Positions 10,301 to 50,143 of a stretch of 64,000 bases of DNA are shown here, piece after piece. Source of the DNA: Armatimonadota bacterium. Its GTDB lineage: Bacteria; Armatimonadota; HRBIN16. The translations under genes were made by a program, and so were the position numbers. The notes beneath the pieces are model-generated. The model had not been told where the DNA came from and searched no databases. It saw nothing but the letters and a program-made list of their open reading frames with translations. The first letter of the stretch is position 1. The number at the start of each line of letters is the position of its first letter. Where the stretch lies: contig OY781964.1 in assembly GCA_963677485.1 (NCBI GenBank), positions 1,056,001-1,120,000 of the forward strand, given 5' to 3'.

Positions 10301-10338
10301 GTTTGTCTGCAGATATCCAGCGTAGATACTGTGGCTTT

Positions 10339-10344
10339 TGTCAA
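10339..10344 (-). promoter_or_regulatory. -35 box (TTGACA) of the IS110 circle-junction promoter
   Basis: After joining the ends: TTGACA-17 bp-TACGCT, with the -10 at 12133-12128, pointing into the bridge-RNA region. Confidence 0.8.
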
Positions 10345-10596
10345 GTCCCCAGGGGCAAATCTGGGGATTTGGACCTGAATATCAGACACTGGCTCTAGAC
10401 CACGTAGAATAACGTTAATGTGATGTTTGTGGCATATAGACCAAACCTGGATCCGCGTCAGAAACAGGCTCAGATGGCATCAGTTGGTCCGTAGCACCTC
10501 ACATGACGCTCGGAGTCGCGAACGGACGTGCGACATCTTCGTGGCTTCGAAAGATATCGTTATGCTTCGATGCGTGCTATCGGCAGACTGCCGCAG

Positions 10597-11889
10597 CTAG
10601 GATACTGGTGTCAGAACCCTCGGTTTGTTGCCCACCCGACTGCGCGATGGCCGGTTTCGGGATGCGGGCCGACCACCGCCGGCAGGAGTGGGCTCATTGG
10701 TGGGATTTCCATCCACGCATCCCCGTCTTGGAACGCTCACGTCCAGCCCAGGATCATTGCCTACACCGGCTATATCATGGGCCGCTCCGGCACGATCCTG
10801 GACATGTCCGTTCGCGTCGGTCAGCGGTTGCTGGTTGGCCGCATTTGAAGCTTGTTCGATGCCGAAGTTTGGATCATATGGCTGACGGCTGATTAATACC
10901 GACCACATGAGCACCAGCTGCTTGCGCATGATTGCGCACCGGACAACTCGCTTGGACTTCGGTTTCTTATTGGGATTCTTTACCAAATTCGGATGCTGCA
11001 GTTCCTTCACGAAGTCGTGCATGCTCTGGCCAAGCTTTTTCGACTTACCGTTGACCATCTTCACCACAGTGCTCGATCCACAGTAGAGTAATGTCCGCAT
11101 ATATCGGTCACCCATCTTGGATATGGAGCCGTCGTATGTCTTGCAGCTTCCTGACCGTTGCGGGCAGGGGTTCATTCCGAAATAGCGCGCGACCGCTTTC
11201 GATGTTTCAAATCGTTTAGCATCACCGATTTTCGCAAGGAAATAGCTTGCTGTGACGTCGCCGATACCCGGAATGCTCTTCAGCAGAGCCATATCTTCGG
11301 TCATCTGCGGTGAACTCATCACAAGCTCTTTGATCTGAACATCAAGCTTTTTGATGCCCATGTCATGAAAAGCGATCATCTCGTCCAGCACTGTGCTCCG
11401 CGTAAGCCGACAGCTTTGGCGCTGGGCGATCGCCTGTCTGTGTTGCACCAGCATACGGCGGTCATTGGTGTAACCAATAAGCGCATCATAGCATGCTAGA
11501 CGAGGGACATAGAGTGAGACATTGTGACTTTTCACATAGTCAGCGATTAGCACGCTGTCAGAGCAGTCCGTCTTTTGTTCCCAGCCTTTGGCTTTGCGGT
11601 GATAGAGAACCCGTTTTGGCTCCAGTTGGACAGCATCGTGCTGGTGCTCGTAGAGGTAATCAAGCAGCGGTCGGCTGTAAGGCCCGGTGGCTTCAGCCGC
11701 ATACAAGGCGGGAGTTCGGGTAAGCTTCTTCACCCATGACAACAACTCCTTGTATCCGGCCTTGTTGTTCTTGAACTCCTTATGGTCTATCGGCTTGTGC
11801 GATGAACCTAATACAGACGCGTCAAACGTCAATTTCGAGATGTCGATCCCGACATAATGGATGTAGATTTTGTCTTCAACTTCGTGCAT
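10597..11889 (-). CDS. IS110 DEDD recombinase/transposase with a long low-complexity C-terminal tail
   Basis: VGIDISK, AAEATG, KTDCSD (DEDD), SIPGIG, catalytic Ser in QRSGS, GSISKMG; ATG 11889 preceded by GGAG. Confidence 0.95.
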   Translation of the reverse strand: MHEVEDKIYIHYVGIDISKLTFDASVLGSSHKPIDHKEFKNNKAGYKELLSWVKKLTRTPALYAAEATGPYSRPLLDYLYEHQHDAVQLEPKRVLYHRKAKGWEQKTDCSDSVLIADYVKSHNVSLYVPRLACYDALIGYTNDRRMLVQHRQAIAQRQSCRLTRSTVLDEMIAFHDMGIKKLDVQIKELVMSSPQMTEDMALLKSIPGIGDVTASYFLAKIGDAKRFETSKAVARYFGMNPCPQRSGSCKTYDGSISKMGDRYMRTLLYCGSSTVVKMVNGKSKKLGQSMHDFVKELQHPNLVKNPNKKPKSKRVVRCAIMRKQLVLMWSVLISRQPYDPNFGIEQASNAANQQPLTDANGHVQDRAGAAHDIAGVGNDPGLDVSVPRRGCVDGNPTNEPTPAGGGRPASRNRPSRSRVGNKPRVLTPVS

Positions 11890-11924
11890 GTGGTAATCTC
11901 CAGTTGGTAGTGATTGATGGTGCA

Positions 11925-12120
11925 ATCAACCAAATCAGCCTAGCGAACACGGGGTTTTCTCCCAAGATACTGTTCGATATGGGTTGATTGGGAGAAGGAT
12001 GCCTATCTACGTCACGGTGTTTTCCACCAGGGGCGGTTCCGGCATCCAATCCTTCTCCTTCACCCCCAGCTAAGGGGTGAGATTAGCTCCCCGACTGCTT
12101 TTGGTGTCCGGGGAGCTCAC
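11925..12120 (-). ncRNA. Putative IS110 bridge RNA with target-binding and donor-binding loops; boundaries approximate
   Basis: GGATGCC..GGCATCC stem encloses ACCGCCCCT (12037-12029) and GACGTAG (12013-12007). A second loop contains ACAGTATCT (11973-11965) and CTAG (11943-11940). These match the element's own target and donor junctions. Confidence 0.8.
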
Positions 12121-12276
12121 CATATATAGCGTACTAGGGGCGATTCGCGAATCGCCCTTCTAGCGTCGGTGGTGTGCTGTGTATCTACGAATAGACACGA
12201 ACGTCGGAACGTAAAAGGCATCTGCTGCCTCCGGTATTCGGACCTCAACACGTTCACGTGAATTGTAAATGCCATC

Positions 12277-36996: not shown

Positions 36997-38456
36997 TTCT
37001 GATCTCCTCCAAATACCGATAGAAGGTGCTTGGTGATGTGGTCTCTCACCAACACATAATGCAGCTCCTCGTTCGCATTCAATGCCGCCATGATCTGTTC
37101 GCCATACGTATCCAAAAGCACACCGTATGAGATATGCAGTAGTTGCCTTACATCCAGGCGTGTGAAGAAGCTGACGGGGTCACCTGCGGGCACCGTATCG
37201 GGGAACTGCTCCGGTACGATGGCCACCACATAGGACTTCTTGCTTTCCGGCAGACTAGACAGGCTCTTTTCATACAGCTTGTTGAACAATTCAGGCTGAG
37301 AGACCGCAATCATCTTCACGGCTTGCAGCCAGCTTGTGCCGCTGGTTTTAAGGTGGAAATGCCCATCGGCAATCTCTCGGAACTTACCGTAGATGCTGAA
37401 TTTATCGCTACCGGAGTGCAGGCTTAACCGGTATCCGCCAATCAGCCGCGCGACCTCTGCATGAAGGCTTAGGTTCTCACTAAATTCGTCCATATCGCCA
37501 ACATAATCGACACCTTTTTGGAAGGCACCGGGGAATTTCGGGGCCAGTGAGGTGAACCCCACGCCCTGCCTGTGCAGATATTCCGCCACATACACGTGGT
37601 CTTCAATGGTCGTCTGACGGGCACCCTCGTCGATGCTGATTTCAAGGTCGTATTTCGGAATGCTGGAGCCAATGATCTGGGCAAAGTGATTAACTTGTTG
37701 TATCGCCTTTTCATAGATGAGAGCCGACTTCGTGAGCTCGTCTGCTGTGAGCTGATATTCATAACCCTGCGGGCTCTTAACGATCTGGCCGGTAAAGTAG
37801 CTGACAATACTCTGGCTTATCGGCGTTAATAGCTCAAAACAGGCCGCCAGGCCTTCTTCGCAAAGGCTGGTGATGTCTTGAAGCCAGTCACCGCAGTCGA
37901 TGGTGTACATGCTGTAACCCGCATCGATGGCGGCGCGCAGATTGTCTTCATCTTTAATATGATCTGCATCTGCCCCAAAAGGCCCTTCATAGCCTGTCTC
38001 AAGAAGCCCCATGACCGCGTCAAGTAATACGGACTCAAAAGTGCGATGGCACTTCTCCAGCTCACGAGGCGACTGCTGCGCCACCACTGGAAATGCCGGA
38101 TAGTCGACCAGAGCTGATATATGGGCCGCAGTGACCATTCCCAGCCGGTCACCACATCCGAAGCTCATGGGCAGATGACACGGTTTGGGGGTAACATCGG
38201 CCATAGCCTGTAGACGCTCGTAGTTCGCCCAATGCCACGGGTATAAGTTGGCGGTCAAGCTCACGGTGACTTGCACATCATCTTCGAACAACGGATCGAG
38301 TAGCTTGAAACGGCCATTACCTGACACGATACCAACATACTTCTGACAATTTCGTTTAGCAATGAACAGGCCAGAGCCATCACATAATGGTATGCATGAT
38401 TTTGGATAGACGCTAAATCCTAATCCCTCCATCACTGGAATGATATACTGTGTCAA
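36993..38456 (-). CDS. uxaE: Tagaturonate/fructuronate epimerase
   Basis: SFGCGDRLG, AQQSPREL, GADADH, EISIDE, HSGSDKF, HLKTSGTSW; TTG start after GAGGAGG is uncertain. Confidence 0.9.
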   Translation of the reverse strand: MTQYIIPVMEGLGFSVYPKSCIPLCDGSGLFIAKRNCQKYVGIVSGNGRFKLLDPLFEDDVQVTVSLTANLYPWHWANYERLQAMADVTPKPCHLPMSFGCGDRLGMVTAAHISALVDYPAFPVVAQQSPRELEKCHRTFESVLLDAVMGLLETGYEGPFGADADHIKDEDNLRAAIDAGYSMYTIDCGDWLQDITSLCEEGLAACFELLTPISQSIVSYFTGQIVKSPQGYEYQLTADELTKSALIYEKAIQQVNHFAQIIGSSIPKYDLEISIDEGARQTTIEDHVYVAEYLHRQGVGFTSLAPKFPGAFQKGVDYVGDMDEFSENLSLHAEVARLIGGYRLSLHSGSDKFSIYGKFREIADGHFHLKTSGTSWLQAVKMIAVSQPELFNKLYEKSLSSLPESKKSYVVAIVPEQFPDTVPAGDPVSFFTRLDVRQLLHISYGVLLDTYGEQIMAALNANEELHYVLVRDHITKHLLSVFGGDQK

Positions 38457-38683
38457 GTTAATCCCATCCTCCTCAGGCAATGAATCGTATATACCGGTTG
38501 CTTGGCGGCCATAGTGCGACCAGAACACCGTATCTCACGCGACTGCCTCTGTTGATAAGTATAACGCCGATCTGCTATAAACCACCACAGCCAAAGCACT
38601 GCATCACAGGCACATAACAACGGAAAGAGGGCAGACCGTCTCCAGTCTGCCCTCCTCATAGAAGCTCTCCTGCTGTGCAGAAG

Positions 38684-39673
38684 TTACTTCATCACGGTCA
38701 AGCCAACGAACAGGCTGTGCCCACGACCAAGCAGGTCTTGAGCGGTTGGGATCGCACCATCCGAGTAGTCCAACTGCACGATGCCGTTGCGGGTGATCCA
38801 GTTCATATGGAAGTTAGGGCGCCCATCATGGCTGTTCACAGTTGCATTGATATTGGGTGTAAGCAAATACTTCACACCTGCGATAGTGACGTTGGACTCA
38901 CGCTTCTGGAATACCGAACCGGTGTCCAGAATATCCCACTCCGTCAGGTAGAGCGTTGTTTTAGGGTTACACTGCCAGCTTGCACCGTAGCTGATGCATC
39001 GCTGTAGGAACTTCTCTGTCTGAGTGATGTCCACAGGACCGTGGGTATAGGCTTTGTACATGGTCGCTTCGGTGTCGAACTCCTGGTAGCTGTAATCCAC
39101 ACCCAGTTTGACACCATGCGGCAATCGCTGAGTGACCCCTAGACGTGCGCCTGTATTACTGCGTGTCCAGCCTTTGATAAGGGTGGTAGCCCCACTCGTT
39201 GCGTGCAGTGCGGTGTTATCTTTAGGTATGATACTCAGACCCACGGCGGTATTTCCAAAGCGTTGTGCATAGGAGAGTTCATACGCCTCGCCGTCAAGCT
39301 TTACCGGCAAACCAGGCAGTCCAGCTAATGGATGCATATTGCTCTCGAAACTCTTTCGGGCAATCCGAGCTACACCTGGGCCAACATCCACCAATACAGA
39401 CTGTGTATTCGTGTCTACATTAAACCCGCCAAATTCAAATGTGCCGTTGTAGAATTCAATGGCGGTCTGCTTTCCACGGTCCTTCAAAACCACAGTTTGC
39501 GCTGCGTATTTTGAGAGAGTGTCGGCGGTGGTCTCACTACCGCTTGTTGATATCCATCCGAATGCCATATTTCCAAGTTTTGTTAATGCCGTAGGAGATG
39601 GGGCAGCGTAAATAGCAGCCGGAGCTAATATAACTATGCCAAGGAGAAGAGATAAGAAGGGGCGTCGTGTCAT
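38684..39673 (-). CDS. Secreted, probable outer-membrane beta-barrel protein
   Basis: Signal peptide MTRRPFLSLLLGIVILAPAAIYA; alternating beta-strand patterns in the C-terminal two-thirds. Confidence 0.6.
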   Translation of the reverse strand: MTRRPFLSLLLGIVILAPAAIYAAPSPTALTKLGNMAFGWISTSGSETTADTLSKYAAQTVVLKDRGKQTAIEFYNGTFEFGGFNVDTNTQSVLVDVGPGVARIARKSFESNMHPLAGLPGLPVKLDGEAYELSYAQRFGNTAVGLSIIPKDNTALHATSGATTLIKGWTRSNTGARLGVTQRLPHGVKLGVDYSYQEFDTEATMYKAYTHGPVDITQTEKFLQRCISYGASWQCNPKTTLYLTEWDILDTGSVFQKRESNVTIAGVKYLLTPNINATVNSHDGRPNFHMNWITRNGIVQLDYSDGAIPTAQDLLGRGHSLFVGLTVMK

Positions 39674-39807
39674 GGGGTGTCCTTTCAAAATCGACAGATA
39701 ATTCGTCACCATTTTGACACTCTACCAGCAACACATAGCTCATAGATAGTGATTTTTAACTAATACATCAATTTATGCAATTAGAACATTCGACTGCATA
39801 TGTACAA

Positions 39808-39848
39808 ATACCAGTAAAATGACACATATACTGTCATTTTACTGGTAT
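39808..39848. promoter_or_regulatory. Perfect 17-bp inverted repeat (operator or terminator)
   Basis: ATACCAGTAAAATGACA-N7-TGTCATTTTACTGGTAT. Confidence 0.6.
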
Positions 39849-39888
39849 GATACACGGTGCTGTTCAACTGATGGTTCAATTATTGCAA

Positions 39889-40788
39889 CTACACCGATAT
39901 TTTGGCGGATACCAAGCCCATCAAGGCATTAAGGAAATCGGGCGATGCATTTAGTGAAGCTGTACGAAGGTATTTAAGACCCAACTCCTCAGCACATGAG
40001 CGTGCCTCTATATCAAGGTCGTATAAAACCTCAAGATGGTCACAAACAAACCCGATGGGGCAAACCACCACGCAGTTGACACCTTGCTCATCGGCCATCT
40101 CGGTGATCACTTCCGTCACCGACGGCCCAATCCACGGTTCATTGGTTCTGGCGGCACTTTGCCACGCCACTGTGTAGTCGGTAATGCCGCAGAGTTGTGC
40201 CACCGCGTCTGCAGATGCTTGAACCTGCTCTTCATAACTGTCGTGCCAGCTTCGGATCCGCGCAGGAAGACTGTGAGCACTGAATATCACCATGGTTTCA
40301 TCGGCCACCAGACCGAACATCGCATCCTTCACGCGACTGGCGACGGCGTCCAGAAACACAGGGTCATCCCCCCACTGCGGAATCGAGGTCAGTTCAATGC
40401 CCTGTTTCGCTGCAGCCTCCGAGGCACGAACGAAGTAACGGTCAGCACCCAGCCGACAGCTATGGGGCGCGAGGGCGAGGGCGACAGCATGAGTGACGCC
40501 TTCCCTACCCATCTGCTCCACCGTCTCTTCGATGAAGGGGTGCCAATGCAGATAACCCACATGCACCCTGGATGGTCCCACCTTCTGGGAAAGCAACCGC
40601 TGCAGCCCCTCAGCCTGTGACCTGGTGATGGAGGCCAGCGGTGAAGGTCCACCAAGTACCTCATACAGACCAAGCAGCCTGGCGAGGGCCTCCTCCGGTA
40701 GAGGCTGCCCACCGCGGATGTGCTGGTAATACTCCGGTAGATCACTTAACTCTTCAGGCGCACCATGTGCCATCAGTAGGATATCCAT
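39889..40788 (-). CDS. hemH: Ferrochelatase
   Basis: LLMAHGAP, GGPSPL, FSAHSLP, WQSA..T.EPWIGP, GFVCDHLEVLYDLD. Confidence 0.95.
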   Translation of the reverse strand: MDILLMAHGAPEELSDLPEYYQHIRGGQPLPEEALARLLGLYEVLGGPSPLASITRSQAEGLQRLLSQKVGPSRVHVGYLHWHPFIEETVEQMGREGVTHAVALALAPHSCRLGADRYFVRASEAAAKQGIELTSIPQWGDDPVFLDAVASRVKDAMFGLVADETMVIFSAHSLPARIRSWHDSYEEQVQASADAVAQLCGITDYTVAWQSAARTNEPWIGPSVTEVITEMADEQGVNCVVVCPIGFVCDHLEVLYDLDIEARSCAEELGLKYLRTASLNASPDFLNALMGLVSAKISV

Positions 40789-40800
40789 GAGCTTCCTCCT

Positions 40801-40837
40801 AAAAACAGGTATCGGGGTGCCAAAAAGGCACCCCGAT
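40801..40837 (-). terminator. Hairpin between cydB and hemH
   Basis: ATCGGGGTGCC-N5-GGCACCCCGAT followed on the minus strand by ACCTGTTTTT. Confidence 0.6.
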
Positions 40838-40850
40838 CATTAGTGATGCT

Positions 40851-41873
40851 CTAGTAATGCAGCTCATCGGATACGCTACCCCGAAAAGTCCGGTGTATCC
40901 ATATCGTATAAGCCAGCACGATCGGAAGCATGATAGCAGTGATGATGGTCATCACCTTCAGGGTCAGCTCGGAGCTTGAGGCGTTGGCCGCACTCAAACT
41001 GAACTCAGGATTGTTGACTGCGTAGACCATATTGGGGAAGAGCATCAACCCCATACAGACAAACAGCAGCAAGATACTGAGGCTTGAGCAGGTAAAGGCA
41101 CTGCGCAGATGCTGGTATTTGATAGCGACGCCCACAGCCAGTGTCAGGCCGAACGCCAACACAGGGAATATATACAGCATCGGCGTATCGTGATAGCTAG
41201 CCATCAGAGGGTTGCGAGCTGCGGTGATGCCCACATAGGCGGCCAATAACACCGCAAACAACCCCCATGCTCCCTGAGCACCCGTCAGTATCCGTTTCTT
41301 CAACTCGCCAGTAGTGCGCAGCGAACCGAATAGCCCGGCATGCATCACCATGAAGGCCACACTCACCACACCCGAAAACAGGCCAATCGGGTTGAGCAGT
41401 GTTAGTAGCGTGCCCGTGAAGTCTCCCCCAGCGTTCATGGGGATACCCCACAGCAGATTGCCCGCGGCCACACCAAACAGTAGCGAAGCCAGCAGGCTGC
41501 TGATGCCAAACACCTGTCCCCAGTTGTTCTGCCATTTGGCACTTGGCAACTGGTGGCGGAACTCGATGGAGATCGCACGCATGATCAGCGCGAACAACAC
41601 CAGCATCATAGCCAGATAAAACCCGCTAAACACCGTGGCGTAAACAGGCGGAAATGCGGCGAAAAGAGCTCCACCGGCGGTGATCAACCAGACTTCATTG
41701 CCATCCCAGTAAGGCATGATGGCATTCATCAGGCTGTTGCGCTCTTTTTCGTCCTTCGTGGTGAGCATCCACCAGCCCATACCCAGGTCGAAGCCGTCCA
41801 GCAAGGTGTATCCAGCAATAAGGATGCCGATCAGCCAGAACCAGGTGGATTGCAGAATCGTGGGCTCCATCAT
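40851..41873 (-). CDS. cydB: Cytochrome bd oxidase subunit II
   Basis: LDGFDLG, PYWDGNEVWL..AGGALFAAFP. Confidence 0.97.
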   Translation of the reverse strand: MMEPTILQSTWFWLIGILIAGYTLLDGFDLGMGWWMLTTKDEKERNSLMNAIMPYWDGNEVWLITAGGALFAAFPPVYATVFSGFYLAMMLVLFALIMRAISIEFRHQLPSAKWQNNWGQVFGISSLLASLLFGVAAGNLLWGIPMNAGGDFTGTLLTLLNPIGLFSGVVSVAFMVMHAGLFGSLRTTGELKKRILTGAQGAWGLFAVLLAAYVGITAARNPLMASYHDTPMLYIFPVLAFGLTLAVGVAIKYQHLRSAFTCSSLSILLLFVCMGLMLFPNMVYAVNNPEFSLSAANASSSELTLKVMTIITAIMLPIVLAYTIWIHRTFRGSVSDELHY

Positions 41874-43237
41874 GCTGGCTCACCTCCCTCTGGGCCCTTC
41901 GCAATTTGCTTGCGTATGGTCATTAACCACAGGCCGAATATCGCTGCATACACCACCAAGAAGAGTATGATGGTGAACAGCACCTGCCAGGCCGGCACAT
42001 TCACACTGACGGAATCCACCGTCAGCAGCATGTTTTGAACCGTCCACGGCTGGCGTCCCATTTCGGTCACTGCCCAGCCCAGGTTGTTAGCGATCCAGGG
42101 CAGAGGCATCATCCACATTGCGATCTTCAGGTAGAGCCTGTTCGTGGCGATGCTGCCCTTCCACGAAAGCCAGGCACCGATCAGCACCAGCAGTGCCATC
42201 AGCATGCCGAGACCAACCATCGCCCGGAACCCGAAAAACAGGACCAGGATAGAGGGCCAGACATCTTGAACTTTGGTGACCTTTGGGTTGTCGATGCCCT
42301 TCAATATCGCAGGGTCATTCAAACCCATCACTTTGCATTTAGGCGTGCCAGATATCATCCAGCTTAGCATGGCGGGCATGCGTATGGCATAATCTGTCCT
42401 GCCCAGATCAGGCCGAGGCCATCCGATCAGGGTCATCGCAGCCGGGCACTCTGTGTCAAACAGAGCCTCATACGCCGCCAGCTTGACTGGCTGGTTGTGC
42501 GCGGTGTTGACCGCATGCCAGTGACCAATCAAAGGCTGGGCACAGGTGCTGATCACCGCCCAGATGATGGCGGTTTTGAGTGAGACTGTGGCGAACACCA
42601 CGTTCTTGCCCTTCAGCAAATACCAGGCACTCACACCGATCACGAAGAAAGAGCCGGTCATGATGGCCCCATCGATGGTGTGAAAGAACCGGGGCAGCAT
42701 GCTAGGGTTGAAGACGGCGCCCCAGAAGTTATCAAGAACAGGCCGGCCAGCACTCATCTTGAATCCTGCGGGGGTCTGCTGCCAGCTATTGGCGATCAGT
42801 ATCCAAAAGCCGGATATGGTCGATCCAAACGCCACCAAAAAGGCGGAGAGCTTCAGCATATCCGCTGAGACCTTATTCCAGCCCAGTAAAAGCACAGCCA
42901 TGAAAGTCGATTCAAGGAAAAACGCGGTCAGCGCCTCGGCGGCCAGAAGTGAGCCGAACACATCGCCGACGAAGCGGCTGTAGCTGGCCCAGTTGGTTCC
43001 AAACTGGAACTCCATGGCGATGCCGGTGGAGACACCCACGGCGAAACTGATACCGAATAGCTTGATCCAGAACCTGGCCATCGCGCGATCTGCTGCAGAT
43101 TTCGTCTTGGCATATCGGCTGACCATGCCGAAAATAATCCAGGACAGGCCGATAGTTAAAGGAGGAAAAAGAAAATGGAAAGCGATGGTGAGCCCGAACT
43201 GGATTCTGGCGAGAAGAACAGCATCCAAACTTGGCAC
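41870..43237 (-). CDS. cydA: Cytochrome bd oxidase subunit I
   Basis: LARIQF..T..FH, EFQFGTNW, FFLESTF, QPVKLAAYE, EMGRQPW. Confidence 0.97.
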   Translation of the reverse strand: MPSLDAVLLARIQFGLTIAFHFLFPPLTIGLSWIIFGMVSRYAKTKSAADRAMARFWIKLFGISFAVGVSTGIAMEFQFGTNWASYSRFVGDVFGSLLAAEALTAFFLESTFMAVLLLGWNKVSADMLKLSAFLVAFGSTISGFWILIANSWQQTPAGFKMSAGRPVLDNFWGAVFNPSMLPRFFHTIDGAIMTGSFFVIGVSAWYLLKGKNVVFATVSLKTAIIWAVISTCAQPLIGHWHAVNTAHNQPVKLAAYEALFDTECPAAMTLIGWPRPDLGRTDYAIRMPAMLSWMISGTPKCKVMGLNDPAILKGIDNPKVTKVQDVWPSILVLFFGFRAMVGLGMLMALLVLIGAWLSWKGSIATNRLYLKIAMWMMPLPWIANNLGWAVTEMGRQPWTVQNMLLTVDSVSVNVPAWQVLFTIILFLVVYAAIFGLWLMTIRKQIAKGPEGGEPA

Positions 43238-44654
43238 CTCCGTGTCAGTCGTAGTACTAGTTCAGTTATACCCGAAATGTGCCAGCAGGCGTTAAGATGC
43301 CCATAAATGGCTGGGGATATCCACAGATGAGGCAGTTTGTCGTAACCACGAATGGACACGAACGGACACGAATGGGAAGGATCCATCCACAGATTACACA
43401 GGTTACGCAGATTAGGTGAGGAGTTGCTGCCAATGTCCGGGGCGGTTTTCCCCAACCGCGCCGGTCTTTCTCCAAGGCAGACAGCAATCGGCACGAAGGG
43501 AAAGATCTCACGCCGAGATCACGGAGGGGGTCATGACCACACAGGTTTGATGGAGTGCCGACACCAGTGGTACTCCCACCGCGACATCAATGTCTCGGCT
43601 ATTGGCAAGAAAGACTGCTGAAGCAGCCTGAAGTCGTCGTACGGCCTCCGGGCACCCACGGAGTGGGTAAGATTCTTATAGCCAGGGGTGAGCGAAGCGA
43701 TACCCCTGGAAATGGCCGCGGTACCCCTACCCCGAAGTGGGTCGTCCAATGACGATGTGGCTGATCACCTCCGATACAAGCCACCAGCCACGCTACGACG
43801 GGTTCCATCGCCCCGTAAACGGGGCTCCATCACCCATCGCTGATCAGTTTGCAGCCCGCAAGCGGGCGCAGCGGAAGGTCATCGCAACCCAATTGCCTTA
43901 GTCCGGGGCGGTTTTCCCTAACCGCGCCGGTCTTTCTCCAAGGTAGACAGCAATCGGCATGAAGGGAACGATCTCACGCGGAGATCACGGAGGGGTCATG
44001 ACCACGTCGGTTTGGTGGAGCGCCTACTACACCAGCGGTCCTTCCGCCGCGACATCAATGTTTCGGCTATTGACAAATAAGACTGCTGAAGCAGCCTGAA
44101 GTCGTGGCGCGGCCTCCGGGCACCCACGGAGTGGGTATGATTCCTTATAGCCAGGGGTGAGCGAAGCGATACCCCTGGAAAAGGCCGCGGAAAACGTAAC
44201 CCCGAAGTGGGTCGTCCGCTGACGCATCGGCAGATCACCTCCGATACAAGCCACTAGCCCTGCTACGACGGGTTCCATCGCCCCGTGAACGGGCTCCGTC
44301 ACCCATCGCTGATCAGTTTGCAGCCCGCAAGCGGGCGCAGCGGAAGGCCATCGCAACCCAATTGCCTTAGTCCGGGGCGGTTTTCCCTAACCGCGCCGGT
44401 CTTTCTCCAGGGCAGACAGCGATCGGCACGAAGGGAACGATCTCACGCCGAGATCACGGAGGGGTCATGACCGCGCAGGATTGATGGAGTGCCTACACCA
44501 GCAGCCCTCCCACCGCGACATCAATGTCTCGGCTATTGAAAAACAAGCATCCGCCCGTGCCTACCCGGCAGCCCATACTGTAACTGATGCGTTTCAGGTA
44601 CATTTATAGCACACATCTCTTGACAGCATCCCCGGACAGTCTTTGGTGCATAAT

Positions 44655-44770
44655 AGCCCGTTAACAAGCATGGGGCGGAAAGGTGGCTGATCAGCCAGAT
44701 GGTGTAGTGCTCGGTGGCGAACCCGAGTGAACCCGATTACAAGATTTCACGCATATGCCTTTCCGGCTCG
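44655..44770 (+). ncRNA. Candidate bridge/guide RNA of the second IS110
   Basis: Nested stems; loops carry ACAAGCAT (44664-44671) and TTACAAGA (44737-44744), matching the element's junctions. Confidence 0.5.
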
Positions 44771-44806
44771 AGATGTGTTCATATTTCTAAGTGTGAGGAT
44801 CAAACA

Positions 44807-46246
44807 ATGGCACAGCACTCTCGAAAAGACAACTCGCCTGTAGAGGCCAAGCCTCCTTCCCACTCCCTGTTGTCGCGCCGTGTACCGGCCCCTCGGTTCG
44901 TAGCTCATTATCCAAAAGAGGATCTCCAGGTGATCCACCGCAATGCAGCGGGCATTGACCTAGCAGGGCGCGGCGCTCACTTCATCGCTCTGGAGATCAG
45001 TGAAACAGAGCTTGAGGTCATAGAGGTGGGGGGAATGACCCCGGATCTGACGGTGTGGGTTGAGTATCTGAAATCGCATGCCGTGACTACGGTGGCGATG
45101 GAGGCGACCGGTGTCTACTGGATTCCGGTGTACGATGCTCTGGAGAAGGCCGGCATCGAAGTATTTCTGGTGAACCCAAGCCATGCTAAGAATGTTCCTG
45201 GACGCCCGAAAGATGACAAGCTAGACGCACGTTGGTTACAGAAGCTGCATAAATTCGGCTTGCTTTCAGCCTCGTTTCGCCCGAGCGAAGACATTCGCCC
45301 GTTGCTAGAATTCTGGCACCAACGAAGTAAACAAGTGGAATTCTGCGGTGATGCGGTCCGTCGCCAGCAGAGGGCTCTGGATATGATGAATCTGCGCCCG
45401 CACCAGGTAATAAGCGACCTGGATGGAGTGACTGGTCAGCGTATCGTGGACGCGATCGTGAATGGAGAGCGTGATCCAGTCAAACTGGCGTCATATCGCG
45501 ATCATCGATGTCACTGCACCGATGAAGAGCTTTATGCGGCTTTGACAGGGTATTACCAACCCCACCTGGTGTTTGCTCTCAAGATAGCCCGAAACGACCA
45601 TCTTTTCCATCAGGCTCAAATCGCTCAGATCGATGCTCAGATATTACAGCATCTTACTGCGATCATGCCTGAGAATGATGATCAGATCACGGAAGCTGTT
45701 AGCTTGGAAACCCACCCAGTCAACCAGGGAAAACATCCACCGCCATTTAATGCTGGTGCGATGGTGACACTGTTTCTGGGTGTAGACCCAACCCAGCTAC
45801 CAGGAATCGGCGGTCTCACAGCTCTGGGCCTTCTGTCTATGTTAGGCTACGACATGGATAAGTGGAAAACGGATCGACATTTCGGGTCATACCTTGGTCT
45901 TGCGCCGGTTCAGAAGATCAGCGGAGGTAAACGGCTATCGAGCCGTACCCGGCCTGGCATACATCCTGCGGCCGTTCTGTTTCTGCAGTCGGCCGTTGCG
46001 ACTATACGTTCTGATAATGCTTACGGTGCTTTCTAAAGACGCTTAGCGGCTCGCATCAGTAAGCCTAAAGCTCTCTATGCCACCGCATACAAAATCGCCA
46101 GGATGTACTACCATCTGCTAAAAGACGGCCAGCAATACGTTGATCTTGGGGTTCAGGATTACGAAGCGAGGTATCAGTCTCATCAAGTTGCAGCCATGAG
46201 AAAGAGGGCCAAGAAGTTAGGTTTCGATCTGATCGAAGCCGTCTGA
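44807..46246 (+). pseudogene. IS110 recombinase with in-frame TAA at 46034-46036
   Basis: NAAGID, AMEATGVYW, KDDKLDA, LPGIG, KISGGK; after the stop the frame continues RRLAARISKPKALYATAYKIARMYY...LGFDLIEAV. Confidence 0.9.
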
Positions 46247-47399
46247 CCATTTGATTTTCGATGCTTTCAAGCACAATTTTATCGGAGAAGTGCATAGGCA
46301 GCTCCGACAGGCATTCTATACCCAATAGGTGGTATGATCGCCGTATAAAGGTTACTTACAAGACTGCTGAAGCAGCCTGAAGTCGTCGCGCGGCCTCCGG
46401 GCACCCACGGAGTGGGTAAGATTCCTTATAGCCAGGGGTGAGCGTAGCGATACCCCTGGTAAAGGCCGCGGTACCCTACCCCCGGACGGGGGTCGTCCGA
46501 TGACGATGTGGCTGATCACCTCCGATACAAGCCACCAGCCCCGCTACGACGGGTTCCATCGCCCCGTGAACGGGGCTCCATCACCCATCGCTGATCAGTT
46601 TGCAGCCCGCAAGCGGGCGCAGCGGAAGGCCACCGCAGCCCAAATGCCGAAGTCCGGGGCGGTTTTCCCTAACCGCGCCGGTCTTTCTCCAGGGCAGACG
46701 GCGATCGGCACGAAGGGAAAGATCTCACGCGGAGACGCGGAGATCACGGAGGGGTCATGACCGCGCAGGTTTGATGGAGTGCCTACACCAGCGGTCCTCC
46801 CGCCGCGACATAAATGTCTCGGCTATTGACAAAAAAGACTGCTGAAGCAGCCTGAAGTCGTCGTACGGCCTCCGGGCACCCACGGAGTGGGTAAGATTCC
46901 TTATAGCCAGGGGTGAGCGAAGCGATACCCCTGGAAAAGGCCGCGGTACCCTACCCCCGGACGGGGGTCGTCCGCTGACGATGTGGTTGATCACCTCCGA
47001 TACAAGCCACCAGCCCCGCTACGACGGGTTCCATCGCCCCGTGAACGGGGCTCCATCACCCATCGCTGATCAGTTTGCAGCCCGCAAGCGGGCGCAGCGG
47101 AAGGCCACCGTAGCTCAAATGCCACAGTCCGGGGCGGTTTTCCCTAACCGCGCCGGTCTTTCTCCAAGGCAGACGGCAATCGGCACGAAAGGAAGACAGT
47201 CCACAGATCGCACATATTGTCTGAACCACGAATATACACGAATGGACACGAATGGCTATAAACACAACGCAAAGTCGCAAAGAAGCAAGGACGCAAAGGT
47301 TGGCGGAGGCGATTCACCATCCGTGTCATCCGTGGTTCAGACGATAACGCAGCATGGACACGAACACCGTATCACAACATAATGCCCCATCCGCCGCAC

Positions 47400-47431
47400 A
47401 AAAAAAGGCGCGGACATTCCTGTCCGCGCCT
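47400..47431 (-). terminator. Rho-independent terminator after nfnB
   Basis: AGGCGCGGACA-N4-TGTCCGCGCCT plus T-tract on the minus strand. Confidence 0.85.
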
Positions 47432-47445
47432 GAGATGCAGATGGC

Positions 47446-48846
47446 CTACGCTCCCTGGCTCTCCAGGAAGCTCTTGATGTTATGCGCGATGTCTTTCCCG
47501 TCGCCCATGGCCAGGATGACCGTGGCGGCGCCGCGCACGATGTCGCCTCCGGCGAACACGCCAGGAATGCTGGTCATGCCCTTCTCATCGGTGATGATGT
47601 TGCCGCGGCGGTCGAGTGCCAGATCGGGGCAGGTGCTGGTGAGCAGCGGGTTCGCTTTGCTGCCGATGGCCACTACCACGCTGTCGCACGGGATCTCGAA
47701 CTCGCTGCCCTCGATGGGAACGGGGCGGGATCGGCCCGATGCGTCTGGTTCACCTGCTGCCATGCGGATGCACTTCAGGCCGGTGACCCATCGTTTCTCG
47801 TTGCCCAGCACTTCCACAGGCGCGGTGAATATTTCAAGCTGCACACCCTCTTGTTCAGCGTGGTGTACCTCTTCCACACGGGCGGGCATGTCCTCTTTGC
47901 TGCGGCGGTAGACGATAATCGCCTCCTCAGCACCCAGGCGGCGAGCGGTGCGCACGGCATCCATGGCCACATTGCCGCCGCCAATCACACACACGCGCTT
48001 CCCCTTCAATATGGGGGTGTTGCTGATCGGGAAGTCGTAGGCTTTCATCAGGTTCACGCGGGTCAGGTACTCGTTCGCTCCATACACGCCCTTGAAGTTC
48101 TCGCCCGGCACGTTCATGAAGATGGGCAGACCGGCCCCCACAGCGATGAACACCGCGCCGAACTGCTGCAGCAGCTCTGGGATGGTGATGGTGTTGCCCA
48201 CAATGACGTTGGGCTCAAGAACCACCCCCATCTTCTCCAGCCTCTGCACTTCGCTGCGCACGATGGCCTTGGGAAGCCGGAACTCCGGGATACCGTAACT
48301 GAGAACACCGCCGGCCTTGTGGAAGGCCTCAAAAACCGTGACCTTGAAGCCCAGTCGCGCCAGCTCACCCGCCGCGGTCAGACCACCGGGTCCAGCCCCA
48401 ACTACCGCCACGCTTTTGGCCTCTGGTGTGATCTCGGGCTTGGCCACGGGCAGGTTCTCGCGTGCCCAGTCGGCCACAAAACGCTCAAGGTATCCGATCG
48501 CCACGGGCAGGCTCTTCACGCCGCGAACACACCGCACTTCGCACTGAGTCTCCTGCGGACAGACACGGCCTGTGATAGAGGGCAGCGCGTTATCGGTTAG
48601 CAGCGAGGTGGCGGCTCCTGCCAGATCGCGTTCCGCCAGCAAGGTGATGAATTTCGGGATATTCACCCCAACAGGGCAGCCTTCGATGCACTTTGCGTTC
48701 TTGCAGTTCAAGCAGCGATGGGCTTCCAGGATGGCGGTCTCCAGTTCGTAGCCCTGGTTCACCTCCTGGAAGTTGCCAGACCTCTGCTGTGCGTCCTGCT
48801 CCCGCATCGGCTGGCGGGTGATGCTCATTTTCTGTTTTGCGTCCAT
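47446..48846 (-). CDS. nfnB: NfnB/SudA-type (GltD-like) NADPH-dependent oxidoreductase large subunit
   Basis: RCLNC...CIEGCP, GRVCPQETQCE, VGAGPGG, YGIPEFRLPK, IGGGNVAMD, GGDIVRGAATV. Confidence 0.9.
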   Translation of the reverse strand: MDAKQKMSITRQPMREQDAQQRSGNFQEVNQGYELETAILEAHRCLNCKNAKCIEGCPVGVNIPKFITLLAERDLAGAATSLLTDNALPSITGRVCPQETQCEVRCVRGVKSLPVAIGYLERFVADWARENLPVAKPEITPEAKSVAVVGAGPGGLTAAGELARLGFKVTVFEAFHKAGGVLSYGIPEFRLPKAIVRSEVQRLEKMGVVLEPNVIVGNTITIPELLQQFGAVFIAVGAGLPIFMNVPGENFKGVYGANEYLTRVNLMKAYDFPISNTPILKGKRVCVIGGGNVAMDAVRTARRLGAEEAIIVYRRSKEDMPARVEEVHHAEQEGVQLEIFTAPVEVLGNEKRWVTGLKCIRMAAGEPDASGRSRPVPIEGSEFEIPCDSVVVAIGSKANPLLTSTCPDLALDRRGNIITDEKGMTSIPGVFAGGDIVRGAATVILAMGDGKDIAHNIKSFLESQGA

Positions 48847-48848
48847 TA

Positions 48849-49682
48849 CTATTTATCCAATCCGATTTTACATGCGTGGTGCGCTTCGGCCTCTTGTTCC
48901 ATCTCTTTATATGTGCCCAGCCGGTCTTGAATCTCATCAAAGTCGACCAAATGCCCATCGAATTCGGGGCCATCCACACAAGCAAACTTAACTTGGCCAT
49001 CCACCATTACCCTGCAACCGCCGCACATACCGGTGCCGTCCACCATCACGGGGTTCAGCGAGACCATGGTCTTCACGCCAAACGGACGCGTCAACTCGGC
49101 GATCGCCCGCATCATGGGCATGGGGCCAGCCGTATAGACGATGTCGATGCCGCCCTCTTCAAGCACGCCCTGCAGCGCTTGCGTGACGAAGCCTTTCACG
49201 CCCAGACTGCCGTCATCGGTGCAGATGATCACACGGCCGCATTCGCCCAGCTCTTTTTCCAGAATGACCCACTCCGAAGTGCGCCCCCCTGTGATGCTGA
49301 TGACCTCTACGCCATTCGCCTGCAGTGCCGTGGCGATGGGCCAGACGACTGCTGTGCCCACTCCGCCGCCCACCAGAACGGCGCGGCCGCTGGTGATCAC
49401 CTCAGTGGGGTGACCCAGCGGACCGGCGATGTCGGTGATCGACTCGCCCACCTCCAGCGCGCAGAGCTCTTTGGTACTGAGGCCGATTGCCTTGATGACC
49501 AGCGTGATGCTGCCCTTCTCGATGTTGACATCCGCGATGGTCAGGGGGATTCGCTCTGATCCCTCACCCTTGCGCACGATCACAAATTGGCCAGGCCGCC
49601 TCTTAGCGGCGATTCGGGGAGCTTCGAAACTGATTTGAAACACATCCGGTGCCAGTTGGTTTTTGGCAATTATACGATGCAT
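48849..49682 (-). CDS. nfnA: NfnA/SudB-type FAD/2Fe-2S subunit
   Basis: PGQFV, ERIPLTI, GPLG, DGTGMCGGCRV...FACVDGPEF. Confidence 0.9.
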   Translation of the reverse strand: MHRIIAKNQLAPDVFQISFEAPRIAAKRRPGQFVIVRKGEGSERIPLTIADVNIEKGSITLVIKAIGLSTKELCALEVGESITDIAGPLGHPTEVITSGRAVLVGGGVGTAVVWPIATALQANGVEVISITGGRTSEWVILEKELGECGRVIICTDDGSLGVKGFVTQALQGVLEEGGIDIVYTAGPMPMMRAIAELTRPFGVKTMVSLNPVMVDGTGMCGGCRVMVDGQVKFACVDGPEFDGHLVDFDEIQDRLGTYKEMEQEAEAHHACKIGLDK

Positions 49683-49711
49683 GTAGGATTTACTTCACTT
49701 TCCTGGGCCTG

Positions 49712-50143
49712 TTAAAAAAAAGCCCGTGAGTTCTGTTGGTATTCTGCATAGTCTGGAAACTTTTGTAATAAGAACCGTTCCTCATACCGCGCCTTAAGGG
49801 CGAGCCAGATGCAGAGGGCGAAGCTGATCGCCATAGCTGTGAGGCTCCCTGTGTACGCGGCAGCACTGATGGCGAGTAGCATAAATCCGCCGTAAATGGG
49901 GTGCCTCACTTTCGCGAAGGCCCCATGCCGGATGAGAGGACTATTGGGCTGCACCGCCGGTAATGGATAGAGGTAACGTCCGAGTGTTACCAATCCAAAT
50001 AGTATTTTCATAATACCGAAAAAACTGAGTAATAGAGGAATCCAAAGCCACTGGTCAGGCATTTTGAGCAACTGGTCTGGTTTCAACCAGCAAGCGAGTG
50101 TCACAAAGAACAGCAGCAGCATTTGGACGACAAAGTAGATCAC
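49712..50143 (-). CDS. Isoprenylcysteine carboxyl methyltransferase/PEMT-like membrane protein
   Basis: GAFAKVRHPIYGG, EERFL..KFPDY..Y; GTG start after GGAGG. Confidence 0.85.
   Translation of the reverse strand: MIYFVVQMLLLFFVTLACWLKPDQLLKMPDQWLWIPLLLSFFGIMKILFGLVTLGRYLYPLPAVQPNSPLIRHGAFAKVRHPIYGGFMLLAISAAAYTGSLTAMAISFALCIWLALKARYEERFLLQKFPDYAEYQQNSRAFF

Follow-up and report, generated by a model that had tools for sequence, protein, structure and literature searches.

Does the non-coding leader of an insertion sequence (IS) of the IS110 family in an Armatimonadota genome encode a bridge-type guide RNA, and if so, in which fold and in which strand sense would that RNA read its target? The question is raised by a 1,810-nucleotide (nt) element in a repeat array of the 64,000-nt stretch analyzed here (the window; GenBank assembly GCA_963677485.1, contig OY781964.1, positions 1,056,001 to 1,120,000 of the forward strand), in which the pentamer ACAAG stands at both junctions and recurs twice in the region upstream of the transposase gene. 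A first interpretation from the letters of the window alone (the sequence-only reading) had proposed an RNA unlike that of IS621, presenting a 5-nt ACAAG core in two stem-loops. The analysis described below leads to a different picture, to which we assign a probability of roughly 80%: a site-specific IS110-family insertion sequence that uses RNA-guided (bridge) recombination, with an IS621-like fold in which the guides are mirrored.

A site-specific IS110-family element in a REP-like repeat

The borders of the element were read directly from the window. The left junction is ...GGCTATTGAAAA-ACAAG-CATCCGCC and the right one ...GGTTACTT-ACAAG-ACTGCTGAAG, while the sister units of the array, TTGACAAATAAGACTGC and TTGACAAAAAAGACTGC, carry ATAAG (44077-44081) and AAAAG (46833-46837), respectively, and can be read straight through with no insertion. 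Since the units of the array are spaced at 470, 2281, and 475 nt, a single insertion of ~1,811-1,815 nt accounts for the arrangement. A clean insertion inside the repeat array with ACAAG at each junction, and empty sister units lacking ACAAG, had both been described correctly in the sequence-only reading. In the 5.22 Mb host genome, which consists of one contig, the element is present in three copies, namely the window copy, a twin with 100% identity (C1:137578-139387) and a third copy with 97% identity (C1:3874341-3876150; hereafter copy 3). All three occupy the same position of the same repeat, CCGCGACAT.AATGTCTCGGCTATTGA....CAAG, element, ACAAGACTGCTGAAGCAG, which resembles repetitive extragenic palindromes (REP-like) and has one hairpin on either side of the insertion point. 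The genome holds 76 unoccupied copies of this target repeat, and 13 in which the left half is followed by the element's left end. Because all three copies share one repeat position, and because two ACAAG-bearing segments of the RNA covary with the junctions in relatives (see below), the junction pattern is more than chance. Site-specific insertion at a short shared core, without terminal inverted repeats, is one of the features by which the IS110 family is recognized, and this is what was found. The left end measures 259 nt and the right end 111 nt, and it is the long left end that carries the RNA.

The translated gene matches PF01548 (N-terminal DEDD RuvC-like domain; E 2.2e-17, residues 48-193) and PF02371 (C-terminal Transposase_20; E 2.3e-12), with residues D51, E99, D137, and D140 invariant or nearly so in the alignment of relatives and the G--P----SG motif present as GLAPVQKISGG. 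In addition, the model NF033542, 'IS110 family RNA-guided transposase', was matched with 198 bits (cut-off 140), and the IS621 recombinase in the PDB gave a distant and partial match (E 4.8e-11). The name of a nearest ISfinder element was not found in the sources, whose annotation goes no further than 'IS110 family (RNA-guided) transposase'. In the window copy and in its twin the gene is interrupted by TAA at codon 410; copy 3 and the relatives have an open codon at this place. In three RNA libraries, position 46036 is a T in the contigs of relatives, which turns the codon into one for tyrosine. The premature TAA is common to the two copies with 100% identity, and the copy with 97% identity is intact, from which we conclude that a broken copy was duplicated. 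The window copy and its twin probably depend on the intact third copy for movement; alternatively, the existence of two identical broken copies suggests that the truncated enzyme might still be functional.

A conserved leader RNA and its guides

Relatives of the element were gathered from the phylum and from species representatives, the latter giving at least 619 confirmed stretches, from which 80 loci with 37-48% identity were kept; their sources include Cyanobacteria, Dehalococcoidia, Acidobacteriota, Planctomycetota, Proteobacteria, and others. Alignment of 54 distinct leaders (alignment A2), from which a covariance model (R1) was built, showed a strongly conserved non-coding RNA with invariant UGGUG and CCCG motifs. 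From 5' to 3', its first half consists of a stem strand (P1), a variable 8-nt guide A, a UGGUG...CCCG hairpin, a guide B ending in AG, and the 3' strand of P1, and its second half of a stem strand (P2), a second UGGUG...CCCG hairpin, a guide D ending in AG, and the 3' strand of P2. P1 and the two hairpins were recovered by RNAalifold on A2, 8 of the 17 pairs showing compensatory changes, and P2 is formed in the relatives from differing sequences (GGGAGCC/GGCUCCC, UGGGUGA/UCACCCA, CCGAUUAU/AUAAUCGG). Model R1 matched 88 of 95 relative loci (51 of the 88 being training rows), always just upstream of the gene and on the gene strand, and at least three of the seven loci it missed (L034, L046, and L133) are without upstream sequence. 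In the element's own genome R1 matched only at the three IS copies, and the Rfam 15 covariance models gave no match in positions 38000-50000 at E values up to 1. The predicted product of the element's left end is a bridge RNA of ~140 nt (roughly 44625-44765) with two internal loops (Table 1), which would be produced from the leader and bound by the recombinase. The proposal of the sequence-only reading that the leader specifies a bridge-type RNA, with one loop related to the target and another to the donor, is borne out by covariation in the relatives.

This covariation was most evident for guides B and D. In 30 of 54 loci, an exact copy of guide B's 7-mer stands upstream of the RNA, compared with 45 of 2,830 non-cognate pairs (1.6%), at a distance of 91-162 nt (mostly 103-127) from the RNA anchor, and the 7-mer of guide D recurs just 3' of the coding sequence in 41 of 54 loci, compared with 31 of 2,664 non-cognate pairs (1.2%). 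Because of these recurrences, guide B is read as having the same sense as the 5 nt of the left target flank with AG, and guide D as having that of the last 5 nt of the element with AG, and the two sets of matches delimit elements of 1.59-2.19 kb. In 36 of 41 distinct loci, guide B is followed by the same two nt with which the element begins (shuffles: mean 11, maximum 19); this dinucleotide, which has the position of a handshake guide in IS621, played no part in placing the junctions. The complement of guide A is the core G together with the right target flank, cognate runs of at least 5 being found in 11 of 36 loci versus 61 of 1,258 controls, and runs of at least 6 in 6 of 36 loci versus 8 of 1,258 non-cognate pairs. 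In a register-free 5-mer map, the only cognate-specific signals were those of B with the left target flank, D with the right element end, and A with the right target flank. Covariation of RNA segments with the flanks in homologues, which had been proposed as a check, thus came out positive for guides B, D, and A as well as for the handshake dinucleotide. Natural reprogramming of the guides is seen in close relatives: copy 3 has guide B TTAGCAAG next to a left flank ..CAGCAAG, and the window copy has TTAACAAG next to ..AAACAAG. In a sister species guide A reads CGGTCTT, with the right flank ACCG (an exact 7-nt pairing) in one of three copies and CCCG in the other two, and its counterpart in the window is CAGTCTT with the right flank ACTG.

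Several observations weigh against this interpretation. A scan for sigma-70-like promoters in positions 44400-46500 found none, and contigs from RNA libraries, belonging to a ~94% identical relative and covering 44560-44868, are compatible with transcription while giving neither strand, ends nor proof of it. On the 5' side of the donor loop, no left-element-end guide was recognized, the mean run there being 3.16 in cognate pairs and 3.13 in controls, and the 5-mer map gave nothing clear. Guide A is weak in many loci, with runs of at most 3 in 19 of 36 and register shifts of 1-3 nt in some, and the two nt after guide D agree with the right target flank at chance level (10 of 37 at each position). 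Moreover, the junctions of the relatives were placed by means of guides B and D, so that covariation with the left target and right end is partly by construction, and the relatives are phylogenetically related, so that the counts overstate independence. The bias of construction is offset by the non-cognate controls, the constant distances, the element lengths of 1.6-2.2 kb and the independent signals of guide A and the handshake dinucleotide.

Three further candidates were rejected. TTGACA...CATAAT as a promoter of the RNA has its two boxes 23 nt apart and encloses guide A. A discontinuous likeness in a Dehalococcoidia subgroup, considered as a donor guide on the 5' side, was indistinguishable from shared ancestry. 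A likeness in antisense between 44636-44656 and the whole target, running colinearly (CAGTCTT ... AATAGCC), is supported by the relatives for the first 7-mer only, the second falling in hairpin 1.

Table 1. Features of the element, its predicted RNA and its target repeat, in positions of the window.
Feature	Position	Strand	Remarks
Left half of REP-like target repeat	44513..44542	+	Hairpin CCGCGACAT..ATGTCTCGG, then GCTATTGAAAA; flanks all 3 copies
Left ACAAG	44543..44547	+	Last 3 nt of left target flank plus AG core (44546-44547)
Body of IS110-family element	44548..46357	+	1,810 nt; empty sister units; 3 copies with 100/100/97% identity
Left-end module, 44 nt	44548..44591	+	Includes left subterminal inverted repeat GTAAC (44580-44584); in ~38 copies elsewhere in genome that resemble miniature inverted-repeat transposable elements (MITE-like)
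P1 5' strand, CCCCG, outer stem of target-binding loop	44630..44634	+	RNAalifold columns 32-36 with 77-81, compensatory changes
Guide A, ACAGTCTT, 5' side of target loop	44636..44643	+	Antisense to A-AG-ACTG (core plus right target flank); 7-nt match in window
Distal hairpin 1, UGGUGC...GCCCG	44644..44660	+	Invariant UGGUG and CCCG
Guide B, TTAACAAG, 3' side of target loop	44661..44668	+	Same sense as left target flank plus AG
Handshake-like dinucleotide CA	44669..44670	+	Equals first 2 nt of element; position as IS621 handshake guides
P1 3' strand, UGGGG	44671..44675	+	
P2 5' strand, GGAAAGG, outer stem of donor-binding loop	44677..44683	+	Pairs with 44758-44764
Distal hairpin 2, GGUG...ACCC	44701..44734	+	Columns 107-114 with 143-150, many compensatory changes
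Guide D, ATTACAAG, 3' side of donor loop	44736..44743	+	Same sense as right element end (TTACA) plus AG
P2 3' strand, CCUUUCC	44758..44764	+	
Transposase/recombinase gene, 479 codons	44807..46246	+	In-frame TAA at 46034-46036 (codon 410)
Right subterminal inverted repeat GTTAC	46351..46355	+	
Right ACAAG	46358..46362	+	Core AG at 46361-46362
Right half of target repeat	46363..46379	+	ACTGCTGAAGCAGCCTG hairpin

Proposed mechanism and alternative readings

In the mechanism that we propose, the element would excise as a circle joining the right end, AG, and the left end. The donor loop would hold the circle junction mainly through guide D (TTACA-AG), and the target loop would hold the REP-like repeat through guides A and B, with guide A pairing with the gene-sense strand of the core and right flank (AAG-ACTG) and guide B with the opposite strand of the left flank and core (AACA-AG). 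The text of Hiraizumi (2024; PMC11208158) describes the two nt 3' of the 3'-side guides of IS621 as 'handshake guides', which pair with the other DNA beside the core after strand exchange. In the present element, the CA beside guide B would pair with the incoming element end after exchange of the CT-carrying strand. The role of 'top strand' with the CT core would fall to the strand antisense to the transposase gene, which is also how it appears in the published text on IS1111-type seekRNAs, and in the present element this strand would be the one cut first.

The same segments could instead be guides to the junctions of the inserted element (left and right attachment sites, attL/attR), the loops splinting the inserted form and the RNA mainly driving excision rather than insertion. 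Guide B with its two following nt does equal the left junction (left flank, AG, and the element's first two nt) in the 36 of 41 loci given above, and guide D equals the right junction up to the core. However, the two nt after guide D mismatch the right flank (10 of 37), guide A pairs with the right target flank from within guide B's own loop, as it would for an intact target, and the 2-nt extension lies exactly where the published text places the handshake guides of IS621. IS621 is, moreover, described in the source consulted as using one bridge RNA for both reactions (PMC13626964). We therefore regard a role confined mainly to excision as improbable.

Slightly less probable still is the fold of the sequence-only reading, a new structure that displays the 5-nt ACAAG core in two hairpin loops, one donor-like and one target-like. 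The strings on which it was built are present in the window (GCCC at 44656-59, GTTAACAAGCATG at 44660-72, and GGGC at 44673-76; GTGAA at 44727-31, CCCGATTACAAGAT at 44732-45, and TTCAC at 44746-50), the pairs GCCC/GGGC and GTGAA/TTCAC are complementary, and ACAAG is found at both junctions in two of the three own copies and in the sister species. In the 54 relatives, however, the upstream UGGUG is the pairing partner of GCCC and (A)CCC(G), and a far-upstream strand (CCCC at 44630-33 in the window) that of the GGGG equivalent, for which reason neither GCCC/GGGC nor GTGAA/TTCAC belongs to the conserved fold; the latter pair is also without a counterpart in other sequences. Among the quoted stems, only that between CGGAAAGG (44676-83) and CCTTTCCG (44758-65) is conserved among relatives. 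The ACAAG segments, taken for hairpin loops, are actually the single-stranded 3' sides of internal loops, and the RNA, taken to be unlike that of IS621, has the same architecture of two internal loops with distal hairpins, only guide order and strand sense being different.

The 5-nt core has to be shortened as well. Among 31 distinct relatives, the two junctions have only AG in common in 19, 3 nt in seven, 4 nt in two, and 5 nt in three, the last class being composed of the window element, its relative in the sister species, and a third element; in copy 3, the left junction reads GCAAG and the right one ACAAG. As the junctions mostly share AG alone, the core of the clade is AG (CT on the other strand), and the 5-nt identity seen here, which is particular to this subfamily, reflects a chance likeness between the right element end and the left flank that guide B selects. 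IS492, of the IS110 family, has a 5-bp repeat at both junctions.

Least likely of all is that the leader structure is only a cis-regulatory 5' untranslated region of the transposase with incidental likeness to the junctions: it does lie directly upstream of the start codon, with no promoter recognized in positions 44400-46500 and no transcript ends given by the RNA-library contigs, but the cognate-specific matches are 40-60 times those in non-cognate controls, the handshake signal is independent of them, and guide changes track flank changes between near-identical elements.

Relation to IS621, IS1111, and small derivatives

The bridge-RNA element with mirrored guides shares with IS621 and ISEc21 the DEDD RuvC-like domain and the Tnp domain with its SG motif, the location of the RNA ahead of the gene within a long left end, and the order of target loop before donor loop, both being internal loops with a distal hairpin. 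Further common features are guides that overlap a dinucleotide core with CT on one strand, a 2-nt handshake extension after the 3'-side guide of the target loop, and a REP-like target. It differs in that each loop has its same-sense guide on the 3' side, where the text of Durrant (2024; PMC11208160) places it on the 5' side for IS621, and in that the 3'-side guides are the longest. In addition, the subterminal inverted repeats are 6-10 bp here as opposed to 2-3 bp in the IS110 group, and the protein has 479 amino acids, as against proteins of a 326-residue class, and shows only distant likeness. When read on the strand antisense to the gene, the clade is the IS621 scheme, CT core included.

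Another IS110 clade in the same genome served as a control. It is present in 12 copies with at least 98.9% identity, one of them at ~10323-12136 of the window on the minus strand, and it resembles the present element in its family domains, in a two-loop RNA in the left end, and in the use of a hairpin repeat as target. In this clade, CGCCCCT (left flank plus core) and ACAGTATCT (right end plus core) are located 5' of the hairpins, which is the order of IS621, and the core is TA. Because the same search gives the IS621 order in the control clade, the reversed order is real and not an artefact of the method. A guide layout different from that of IS621 was rightly predicted, the same-sense guides B and D following the hairpins. 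Model R1 gave no match on the other clade, and the earlier assignment of the element to a distinct clade of the IS110 family is supported. The control clade inserts after the hairpin GGGCGATTCGCGAATCGCCCC, and its reading frames are split in 2 of the 12 copies.

According to the text of Siddiquee (2024; PMC11187229), whose 'top strand' is taken here as the transposase gene strand, the guide order of the IS110-type ISEc21 is the reverse of that in IS1111. IS1111 elements are described there as having subterminal inverted repeats, a non-coding region that lies downstream of the gene, and a transposase of 330-350 amino acids; these rules have few exceptions, and further families may hide in 'IS110'. 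With the seekRNAs of IS1111 (ISEc11, ISPa11, and ISKpn4, as described in that text), the present element shares the guide order, antisense A before same-sense B, and it further resembles IS1111 in its subterminal inverted repeats and its site-specific insertion. They lie inward of the element's ends, by ~35 nt on the left and by 6 nt on the right, and their length is 8-10 bp in 22 of the 32 relatives, compared with 6 bp in copy 3 (GTAAC(T)) and 5 bp in the window (GTAAC). Most relatives thus reach the length given for IS1111 (7-17 bp), the window element having only 5-6 bp. In contrast to the published description of IS1111, where the RNA is downstream of tnp with few exceptions, the RNA is located upstream of the gene (88 of 95 loci), and the transposase has 479 rather than 330-350 residues.

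We consider the element to be a real member of a known RNA-guided system, and the combination of reversed guide order, upstream RNA, and subterminal repeats to be a hybrid arrangement that is a variant worth noting. Within the text of the literature searched, figures and supplements lying outside this scope, no bridge RNA was described that lies upstream of its gene and has its strand sense reversed. A 2026 preprint (10.64898/2026.10.21.760802) reports 86 covariance models for 32,190 bridge RNAs, many of which deviate from the IS621 structure and yet covary with target and donor, and the clade may well be among these models already. More tentatively, and with the odds clearly against it, the large clade (at least 619 matches among species representatives, thousands of proteins) could be an undescribed living intermediate between IS110 and IS1111. 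It would combine the IS110 layout of upstream RNA and long transposase with an IS1111-type polarity (CT core antisense to the gene, dominant 3'-side guides, subterminal inverted repeats), and its RNA-less MITE-like derivatives would insert at sites that fit the guide of the master element. If true, this is the form expected had the RNA-programmed donor site moved across the bridge-RNA gene on the circle. Independently of this reading, the present result links guide polarity to the subterminal inverted repeats and not to where the RNA gene lies, which bears on the divergence of IS110 and IS1111. Bridge recombinases are being engineered as programmable DNA-insertion tools, for which target prediction needs an assignment of guides to strands. 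Since this widespread clade reads its sites in the sense opposite to that of IS621, annotation or design rules taken over from IS621 would give wrong predictions of the core (AG versus CT), of the orientation, and of where the guides begin and end.

Part of the small-repeat mosaic of the genome can be explained by the element, the REP-like repeat being its landing site and ~38 short elements sharing the IS left end. Under a strict pattern, the first 44 nt of the element occur 41 times in the genome, three of these in the IS copies; xAG precedes 33 of the 41 modules, and in 16 the flank is AACAAG, which fits guide B. Two complete mini-elements of ~75 and 146 nt were observed in the target repeat (G000:C1:1126180-1126330 and G000:C1:3586070-3586146). 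Their right ends resemble that of the IS (..TACTT / ..CTAACTG, then ACGAG / ACAAG), they contain neither RNA nor gene, and they look like MITE-type passengers of the IS. No link exists between the ~38 left-end modules and the element's gene, as tblastn with the element's protein (E 1e-5) finds only the three IS copies.

In the genome of the sister species (G141, L045:1050-1500), a MITE-like copy (left-end module ... GCTAGTTACTT) and a full IS copy stand next to each other with only ACAAG between them, the pair lying head-to-tail in one target repeat with the MITE-like copy first. Three other loci (L081, L101, and L113) have two R1 matches each, ~2.2-2.3 kb apart and on one strand, which suggests that they hold tandem copies of the element. 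The host array (43435-47270 of the window) comprises ~5 units of ~470 nt with 66-97% identity, each ending in the REP-like target repeat, and gave no Rfam match; parts of its units, e.g., GTCCGGGGCGG..., also adjoin MITE-like modules elsewhere in the genome. A single low-depth metagenome contig (run X16) joins the two halves of the target repeat (44539/46359 of the window) with CCAG between them and represents an unoccupied repeat; its left flank resembles that of copy 3. Members of the clade were further observed in plasmid records (H2-H8) of Citrobacter, Escherichia, and Enterobacter from clinical and wastewater sources, where they are annotated only as 'IS110 family transposase' and match residues 40-475 of the protein with ~42-44% identity.

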